From Candidatus Omnitrophota bacterium (GTDB taxonomy: Bacteria > Omnitrophota > Gorgyraeia > Gygaellales > Profunditerraquicolaceae), in the NCBI GenBank assembly GCA_041651675.1, contig JBAZIT010000002.1, positions 1 to 33,353 on the forward strand: a stretch of DNA of 33,353 bases, in the 5' to 3' direction. Positions 3,519 to 4,269 of the stretch are shown here, piece by piece. The notes under the pieces are model-generated. The model was not told the DNA's origin, did no database searches, and was given only the letters and a program-made list of their open reading frames with translations. Position numbers and translations under genes: made by a program. Position 1 is the first letter of the stretch. Each line of letters begins with the position of its first letter.

Positions 3519-4199
3519 CTACTGGCAGCAAAGACAACCCTCGCCGATATTGCCGCTGCTCCATCCGCTGTAGCAGCCTCCGCCCGGCGGTCGGAAGAAG
3601 TTGGCGTTGTCGGGGCCGTAGTAGCAGGAGCCCCAGGAACCGAGATCTTTCTTAAGTGTCCAACCACTAGGGCAGCTACAACTGCCCACGGCACTGGAAT
3701 AGTCTACATAGCAGGTACTCCCTCCTCCCTGCGCTACCCAGGTAGAGCCGTTATGGGCATAGAGAGCGCCTTCTGTGGTATCGTAAACCAGCATACCTGC
3801 GGTTGGTGAAGATATGGCATTCTTCTGGGCAGTAGTCATCCGCGGAGGGATAAAGGCCTTAGAGGTGCTGGAGAGCTCAAGGATAGAGTTGGGGTTGGGA
3901 TTTGTCGTCCCTATCCCCACATTCCCCTCTACTACCAGGTCTGCCAGATAGTCAATCTCTCCTCCGTCTCCGTTTTCCTCCTCCCAGGTATAATCAGGGT
4001 TATCAATGTAGTTATCTCCTATGGCCAGGCGCTGGGAGCGCATCTCCCGGTATACTCCGTAGGGAGAAGGATAGTAGGTGGTGATGGTCAGGGTATCTTC
4101 GGCAAAGGCTACTGGAGGATTAAAGGCGAGAGCAAAGAAAAAACTCAGAGAGAGAGAGAGAGAGAGAGAGAGAGAGAGAGAGAGAGAGAGGAAAAACAT
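3519..4199 (-). CDS. DGR target protein: secreted, with a tail-fibre/adhesin-like middle region and a Cys-rich variable C-terminus
   Basis: 226 aa with the signal-like N-terminus MFF(LS)8FFFALAFNPPVAFA. Internal motifs are LVVEGNVGIGTTNPNPN and IPPRMTTAQKNAISSPTAGMLVYDT. The C-terminal 41 aa are the VR. Confidence 0.85.
   Translation of the reverse strand: MFFLSLSLSLSLSLSLSLSFFFALAFNPPVAFAEDTLTITTYYPSPYGVYREMRSQRLAIGDNYIDNPDYTWEEENGDGGEIDYLADLVVEGNVGIGTTNPNPNSILELSSTSKAFIPPRMTTAQKNAISSPTAGMLVYDTTEGALYAHNGSTWVAQGGGSTCYVDYSSAVGSCSCPSGWTLKKDLGSWGSCYYGPDNANFFRPPGGGCYSGWSSGNIGEGCLCCQ
3522..3645 (-). repeat. DGR variable repeat (VR), last 41 codons of the target gene
   Basis: Aligns to TR 2277..2397. 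I count 14 substitutions, every one at a plus-strand T of TR (an A on the coding strand): TR 2279, 2308, 2309, 2314, 2327, 2359, 2360, five within 2368..2376, and 2380, 2381. There is also one extra codon in VR inside the (AAC)3 tract. Confidence 0.9.
4147..4190 (-). repeat. perfect (AG)22 / (CT)22 dinucleotide microsatellite inside the target-gene signal-peptide codons
   Basis: Direct reading shows 44 nt of uninterrupted ag repeats starting 9 nt downstream of the ATG. They are translated as (LS)n. Confidence 0.98.
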
Positions 4200-4269
4200 T
4201 CCTTAATTTAGGCACGGTGGACCTCCGATTTAACGTTTTAATATTGCTATTAATCTATGGTTAATATTC

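Follow-up and report, generated by a model that had tools for sequence, protein, structure and literature searches.

A (CT)n tract in the signal-peptide codons of a diversity-generating retroelement target gene as a probable phase-variation switch in Candidatus Omnitrophota

Contingency loci built on simple-sequence repeats (SSRs) are known almost entirely from host-adapted pathogens. In the opa genes of Neisseria, a multigene family, CTCTT pentamer repeats lie in the signal-peptide region, and most copies are OFF at any time, which leads to combinatorial surface variation. Diversity-generating retroelements (DGRs), a second source of variation, are usually treated as acting on continuously expressed genes. 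Omnitrophota are bacteria of ultra-small size, possibly predators or parasites, that are suspected of living attached to other cells. Here we analyzed a stretch of 33,353 nucleotides (nt) from a Candidatus Omnitrophota bacterium (assembly GCA_041651675.1, contig JBAZIT010000002.1, positions 1 to 33,353 of the forward strand), hereafter the window, in which the target gene of a DGR carries a perfect (CT)22 tract in its signal-peptide codons. We consider it likely, on comparative sequence grounds, that this tract is a slipped-strand-mispairing contingency switch gating a DGR-diversified secreted surface protein.

In the oipA gene of Helicobacter pylori, CT repeats in the signal-peptide region, commonly 5–11 units long, change the reading frame through slipped-strand mispairing, and switching has been shown by experiment (PMC10564699). 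The tract in the window resembles that of oipA in its CT unit, in its position just past the start in signal-peptide codons, in the coexistence of ON and OFF alleles, in the early stops of the out-of-frame phases, and in a product that is an exported surface protein, as predicted here. Unlike oipA, the Omnitrophota tracts are much longer (8–25 units), the host is an uncultivated environmental bacterium and not a host-adapted pathogen, the gene is also a DGR target, and switching, experimentally proven in H. pylori, is here predicted from sequence comparison. Homology of the target to Hop/OipA proteins was not detected: the protein gave no Pfam family at E ≤ 0.01, and all named homologues found are Candidatus Omnitrophota proteins. 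The resemblance to oipA appears to be one of mechanism only, with no sequence relationship. As in Neisseria opa, a paralogous surface-protein family is predicted in which the leader of each member holds a separate pyrimidine-rich coding repeat. Unlike opa, whose unit is a pentamer and which involves no retroelement, the Omnitrophota genes have a dimer unit, encode unrelated proteins and include DGR targets, and each locus sequence examined contains a single tract-bearing gene.

The tract occupies positions 4147–4190 on the minus strand and was reported by Tandem Repeats Finder as a period-2 repeat of 22.0 copies with 100% matches. Counted between first bases, the tract begins 9 nt after an ATG (4199–4197) and 25 nt after a GTG (4215–4213). 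Read along the minus strand, the leader consists of a Shine–Dalgarno (SD) sequence GGAGG (4226–4222), a 6-nt spacer, the GTG, CCT AAA TTA AGG A, the ATG, TTT TTC, (CT)22 and GAGTTTTTTC... The open reading frame (ORF) entered at the ATG reads MFF(LS)8FFFALAFNPPVAFA↓EDT... and encodes 226 amino acids (aa) up to a stop at 3519. The signal-peptide coding region (4101..4215, minus strand) comprises a positively charged n-region (PKLRN), a hydrophobic h-region formed by (LS)n and FFFALAF, and an AFA↓ED motif; the cleavage site, proposed from the A-x-A motif and a conserved AE(E/D)T boundary, would give a mature protein with the predicted N-terminus EDTLTITTYYPSPYG...

The position of the tract makes it a frame-setting element. 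Because the GTG sits 16 nt upstream of the ATG, it reaches the frame of the protein body at n = 17, 20 or 23 and is off that frame at n = 22; the ATG is in the body frame at n = 22 and n = 19. At n = 22 the GTG frame ends 24 nt past the tract at a TAA (4122–4120), and the third, null phase ends at a TGA (4147–4145) that is created at the 3′ edge of the tract, where CT meets GA. The first-pass annotation of this DNA had described the 44-nt tract beginning 9 nt past the ATG at 4199 and encoding (Leu-Ser)n, early stops in the other frames, and a GTG with a well-spaced GGAGG that a single extra CT unit (n = 23) would bring in frame, set against an ATG abutted by AAGGA (4204–4200). Tandem Repeats Finder and translation bore out all of this geometry. 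Chance does not explain the tract, as (CT)8G occurred in none of 100 dinucleotide-preserving shuffles, and (CT)22 is the only dinucleotide tract of at least six units in the window.

Assemblies of the same locus were found by exact-sequence look-up of the reverse transcriptase (RT) and Avd of the window. The comparison of tract lengths across related assemblies that had been proposed with the switch revealed variation both at the same locus and in further lineages. Four same-locus alleles span all three reading phases: the window itself (n = 22, ATG phase), L029 from JGI 3300037067 (n = 19, ATG phase), L031 from ENA ERZ27247358 (n = 17, GTG in frame) and L034 from ENA ERZ27247363 (n = 21, neither start in frame). 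Their flanks show no mismatch over 245–357 nt upstream (L029 and L034) and 480 nt downstream (L029, L031 and L034). Compared with the window, L034 has an identical variable region (VR), and the sole difference in the compared stretches is one CT unit. Tract length also differs in three further pairs with 100% identical flanks of 861–1200 nt each, namely L002 (25 units, OFF) versus L004 (21 units, ON), L010 (12) versus L020 (13), and L013 (15) versus L023 (14).

All of these lengths are assembly consensus values, and differences of one unit up or down, as seen in some pairs, could be explained by Illumina stutter or assembler choice; differences of 3–5 units are not easily explained in this way. 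An assembly or sequencing artefact, in which the tract or its length differences arise from polymerase stutter or assembler error, has some grounds in that dinucleotide repeats are error-prone in Illumina libraries based on the polymerase chain reaction, that the k=31 Logan contigs all break within the tract, and that the contig of L030 begins just past it. These same Logan contigs show the tract to be present and long, and tracts were detected in at least eight independent metagenome runs from landfill, wastewater and groundwater. Altogether, the 27 loci described below were recovered with different assemblers in data from JGI, ENA, NCBI and Logan, and the lineage of L001 has n = 15 in three separate contigs, which shows that this site can be assembled reproducibly. 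We therefore regard an artefact as very improbable. A look-up of the neighbouring helicase gene returned one contig, which ends before the tract. In-frame-only tuning of h-region length was excluded by observed differences that are not multiples of three units. Slippage of transcription on (CT)n, or frameshifting of ribosomes there, was not supported: we know of no precedent, and no evidence of either was found.

The start-codon model of the first-pass annotation, with the ATG as main start and the GTG as alternative, required revision: both codons exist as placed, but relatives show the reverse order of importance. In every locus, orthologous or paralogous, the conserved start is an SD-backed GTG, TTG or ATG at the position of 4215 that encodes M-P/F-K-L-K/R..., and the 27 loci have GGAGG or a close variant a few nt 5′ of the start. 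In L001, whose target protein and RT are 77% and 89% identical to those of the window, the leader reads cGGAGGtgttcc TTG CCT AAA TTA AAG AAA GTC TTT TC(CT)15 and is in frame from the TTG. A similar layout (GGAGG, a few nt, and a start encoding M-P/F/L-K-L/P-K/S...) is found in L002 and L004, L005 and L014, L013 and L023, and L021, and the GTG at 4215 is homologous to the TTG, GTG or ATG starts of L001, L002, L004, L005, L013, L014 and L021. Because orthologous DGR loci share its layout, GTG 4215 is the conserved start, out of the body frame in the window. In L031, the sole same-locus allele with the GTG in frame, the gene call in the protein collection (228 aa) begins at the GTG. By comparison, the ATG at 4199 derives from AAT GTT, where relatives, as far as they align, have AAA GTC/GTT or similar, and it is a lineage-specific codon and a possible weak second start. 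The window allele is OFF for the canonical GTG, and the in-frame ATG would give at most weak expression.

It was also considered that GTG 4215 and ATG 4199 are both functional, so that the gene would be ON in two of three phases and yield one mature protein from two leaders. Two of the four same-locus alleles (n = 22 and n = 19) have the ATG in the body frame, the JGI gene call of L029 starts from this ATG, it is retained in all copies of the lineage (L029, L031, L034 and contigs of runs X2–X4), and both leaders have the h-region and AFA↓ED cleavage site in common. Nevertheless, no locus outside the lineage of the window has a body-frame start codon 5′ of the tract; the AAGGA abuts the ATG without a spacer and GGAGG is 22 nt away; and the leader beginning MFF... 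lacks the K/R n-region found in most signal peptides of the family. Moreover, as most loci of the family are OFF, an allele with n = 22 calls for no rescue start. Two functional starts are thus unlikely, and we favor a switch that acts through the GTG.

Gene calls around the tract are informative in themselves. The 174-aa calls for the window (3519–4042) and for L034 begin at an internal Met, and an exact look-up of the 226-aa protein returned no record, the window gene being present in the collection as a call from Met53. Six of 120 homologues, the entry of the window included, were called in this manner (P0001, P0005, P0007, P0097, P0105 and P0120), with starts such as MRSQR or MRAKR... that omit the signal peptide and the N-domain motif. 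Among the internal-Met calls that were checked, those of the window, L002, L019 and L034 lie on out-of-frame tracts, and that of L003 is in frame, so the truncation appears to be partly a gene-caller artefact around the repeat.

Besides the signal peptide, the gene at the tract (3519..4199, minus strand) encodes an N-domain with TITTYYPSPYG, a middle region of the PTL_trimer type and, at the C-terminus, a variable domain rich in Cys; PF26696 is precomputed on relatives of the protein. Its 3′ end contains the VR (3517..3645), with repeat families D1 and D2. Directly downstream on the same strand are the RT gene (2409..3464; RVT_1, 1.9e-17), the template region (TR; 2272..2397), which is rich in AAC codons on the coding strand and in which Tandem Repeats Finder reported (GTT)7 at 2355–2376, and a gene for the accessory protein bAvd (1743..2084; PF22296 bAvd, 8.6e-23). 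Differences between TR and VR fall at plus-strand T of the TR, that is, at coding-strand adenines, with one exception at the stop codon and the end of the initiation of mutagenic homing (IMH) sequence; an alignment of six alleles with the TR also gave differences at adenine positions. With an RT beside a TR/VR pair, an Avd-type protein, adenine-specific differences and a VR that varies on constant flanks, the tract-bearing gene is a DGR target.

Six copies of the locus carry five different VRs on identical flanks, with differences at TR-adenine positions, and the same VR positions vary in Logan contigs of runs X1–X4. Because the VR differs between runs and alleles at these positions, the DGR is judged to be active. 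As in the DGRs of Bordetella phage BPP-1 (Mtd), Legionella (LdtA) and Treponema (TvpA), an RT, Avd, TR/VR and adenine-specific substitutions occur together, and, as in canonical DGRs, the C-terminal VR belongs to a secreted or surface ligand-binding protein, as predicted here. Unlike canonical DGRs, the target carries a probable SSR frame switch, which literature searches found in no described DGR target; its VR length varies by 3–12 nt, and the VR scaffold has no significant match in PDB. The AlphaFold model of the target has a predicted local distance difference test (pLDDT) score of 80–94 in the C-terminal half, and a Foldseek search of PDB with this model, which bears on the C-type-lectin or Ig-like fold typical of DGR variable domains, gave no significant match (best E = 0.34; Mtd, E about 1). 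The VR also varies in length, around 3560–3612 in the VR and 2315–2376 in the TR: the VR of the window is 3 nt longer than its TR, and the VRs of same-locus copies, L028 and L029 among them, contain extra 3–12 nt insertions in the part templated by the AAC repeats of the TR. These length changes suggest slippage in complementary DNA synthesis or integration, which would be unusual for DGRs.

A gene overlapping the end of avd (973–1770, minus strand) encodes a 265-aa protein with an N-terminal hydrophobic segment, a HELGH zinc-protease motif and a weak match to Peptidase_M64 (4.7e-05). Genes of 261–265 aa occur in the same avd-overlapping position in the related DGR loci L002 and L028–L037, and the protein may be a conserved cargo or partner of the cassette.

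The wider distribution of tract-bearing genes was surveyed with a pattern scan for (CT)8G, a gap of 40–70 nt and codons for TTYYP, which yielded 22 genuine metagenomic loci and one Omnitrophota metagenome-assembled genome (MAG), one further hit (L025) being spurious. Combined with loci from a protein look-up, the set comprises 27 loci. In all of them a (CT)8–25 tract is placed 18–31 nt after an SD-backed start, and both non-body frames stop within 49 nt past the tract (median 20 nt), with the CTGA junction at the tract edge stopping its frame in 11 loci. The start is in the body frame at 10 loci and out of frame at 17. With the exception of L011, the OFF alleles retain intact bodies of 174–391 codons, and the ratio of nonsynonymous to synonymous substitution rates (dN/dS) is 0.15–0.23 over 120 codons outside the VR (window, L001 and L002), indicating purifying selection on the downstream ORFs. 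Across 173,882 nt of locus sequence, no dinucleotide repeat of at least six units occurs outside the leader tracts, and there is one homopolymer of at least nine. A scan of species-representative genomes found one locus, L027, probably because MAG contigs break at the tracts.

Genes with the tract share the TITTYYPSPYG N-domain and include DGR and non-DGR members. An RT and Avd are located near the tract-bearing gene in the group of the window, L001 and L002, in the group of L013 and L023, and in L018 and L008; in L005 the tract-bearing gene is followed by the beginning of an RT gene. These RTs are 41–91% identical to that of the window (76–91% in L001, L002 and L023). Because RT and Avd genes lie near tract-bearing genes in several groups, the pairing of tract and DGR recurs across several DGR lineages.

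Several observations weigh against a switch, in addition to the consensus nature of the tract lengths discussed above. Ten in-frame loci of 27 come near one third, the share that an unconstrained phase, and likewise a neutral tract, would give; the loci are not independent, several being copies of one lineage; L011, an OFF locus, has a truncated body; most family members have ordinary signal peptides without a tract, and the switch would not be essential to the family. Expression evidence is minimal, consisting of two small contigs from RNA runs (2385–2596 and 3756–3910) that could be DNA carry-over. The phase ratio, the truncated body of L011 and the many relatives without a tract would fit a neutral hypervariable microsatellite, noise tolerated in a hydrophobic leader with out-of-frame copies heading to pseudogenes. 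Such neutrality is difficult to reconcile with the full-length ORFs retained in OFF alleles and with a low dN/dS of the body to which two OFF alleles (window and L002) contributed. It would also leave aside that diverged paralogues have the tract in one and the same place, with perfect repeats of as many as 25 units, that no other SSR was found in 174 kb, that ON and OFF alleles coexist on identical flanks, and that VR diversification is ongoing in the lineage of the window. We therefore consider a neutral microsatellite quite unlikely and retain the contingency switch as the best explanation.

Under the switch model, the tract would set the frame between the SD-backed GTG at 4215 and the body of the secreted surface protein, and CT units gained or lost at replication would move the gene from one to another of three phases. 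With n mod 3 = 2 (n = 17, 20, 23), the GTG would be in frame, and the cell would produce and export the full pre-protein MPKLRNVFP(LS)n..AFA↓EDT; in either remaining phase, translation begun at the GTG would halt at the TGA (4147–4145) or the TAA (4122–4120). The C-terminal tip would be diversified by the adjacent DGR, so that ON/OFF gating and hypermutation would act on one gene. Slippage as the source of the length changes, reversibility within a population, an effect at the protein level, and a surface or adhesin function are predictions of this model. Properties typical of contingency loci are found together here: a perfect repeat in 5′ coding sequence with a unit length that is not a multiple of three; a repeat number that is polymorphic among otherwise identical copies of the locus; and ON and OFF alleles with early OFF stops and an intact, constrained downstream ORF. 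The earlier proposal of an ON/OFF switch and a DGR on the same gene thus gained comparative support from the alleles with 22, 21, 19 and 17 units, their identical flanks and their VR differences, but its start-codon model held only in part.

No promoter-like or terminator-like site was called between the target, RT, TR and avd, which may therefore be transcribed as a single unit. A promoter and terminator scan based on consensus sequences, which required a −35 element, gave no call on the target-gene strand; by eye, TGGTATAAT (4289..4297, minus strand), conserved in L002 and L004, is a candidate extended −10 promoter for the unit. It is the first of two GGTATAAT motifs 18 nt apart (4289–4297 and 4271–4276, minus strand), both of which fall in the 113-nt gap that separates the helicase gene from the target.

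The N-domain itself is widespread. The depth of Logan contigs rises 10- to 100-fold over N-domain codons (window 3917–3963 and 4058–4104; in run X2, 2596 versus roughly 25–50), and many loose contig ends from these codons lead into other leaders. From this jump in depth and the many leader branches, the TITTYYPSPYG N-domain belongs to a multigene family that is very abundant in communities of landfill, wastewater and groundwater. Paralogues with the shared N-domain carry other C-termini, including tail-fibre/Peptidase_S74 and C1q domains. In L019, a non-DGR tail-fibre paralogue (P0097; 1046–1126), the sequence 3′ of the tract is nearly identical to that of the window in FFFALA(L/F)NPPVAFAEDT... 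(window 4100–4146) and in the N-domain, and the sequence 5′ of the tract matches the leader of L013 and L023. This mosaic suggests that leaders of paralogues have recombined at the repeat or close to it.

The neighbours of the cassette in the window are a DEAD-box helicase, MsrAB, an Mbh/Ech-type membrane hydrogenase cluster, a rubrerythrin, a GT2 glycosyltransferase and a PAS histidine kinase. Phage origin was ruled out, given these chromosomal housekeeping and energy genes, and the viral-contig scan, which returned no tract-bearing locus, fits a cellular origin of the tract-bearing genes. The hydrogenase cluster (10922–17843) is a six-gene Ech/Mbh-type membrane-bound hydrogenase or complex-I-like module with a fused 30/49-kDa subunit, a 20-kDa subunit, an NADHdh subunit and two antiporter-like subunits, and it is adjoined by the rubrerythrin gene (18010–18633). 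Farther along, a single ORF (25495–26883) encodes a response-regulator receiver domain fused to an NAD-dependent sugar epimerase/dehydratase, with a CofD-like gene and a gene for a 1367-aa multi-PAS histidine kinase (28584–32687) as neighbours.

Each part of this system has been described before; what is new is their combination, and the host in which it occurs. Full-text literature searches found no paper linking DGR targets with SSR phase variation and no report of phase variation in Omnitrophota. The two fastest known mechanisms of bacterial variation would here meet on one gene, recurrently, in an uncultivated environmental phylum. More tentatively, an Omnitrophota clade might run a "phasome" of TITTYYPSPYG surface-fibre genes, each gated by (CT)n and several overlaid by a DGR, with an unexpressed reservoir of VRs or a coupling through polarity. 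If so, the OFF state would let VR variants accumulate unexpressed and unselected, to be revealed when the tract slips ON; alternatively, as the target, RT, TR and avd appear to be one transcription unit, premature termination in the OFF phase would lower DGR activity by polarity and couple mutagenesis to expression. Either would amount to a two-tier system of ON/OFF and sequence variation that is undescribed for DGRs. If the contingency switch is the right reading, DGR surveys based on gene calls would mis-annotate or truncate such targets, and metagenome assemblies would tend to break at tract-bearing genes. It would also imply a testable two-level bet-hedging, in ON/OFF state and in ligand specificity, that may bear on how Omnitrophota recognize their hosts or prey.

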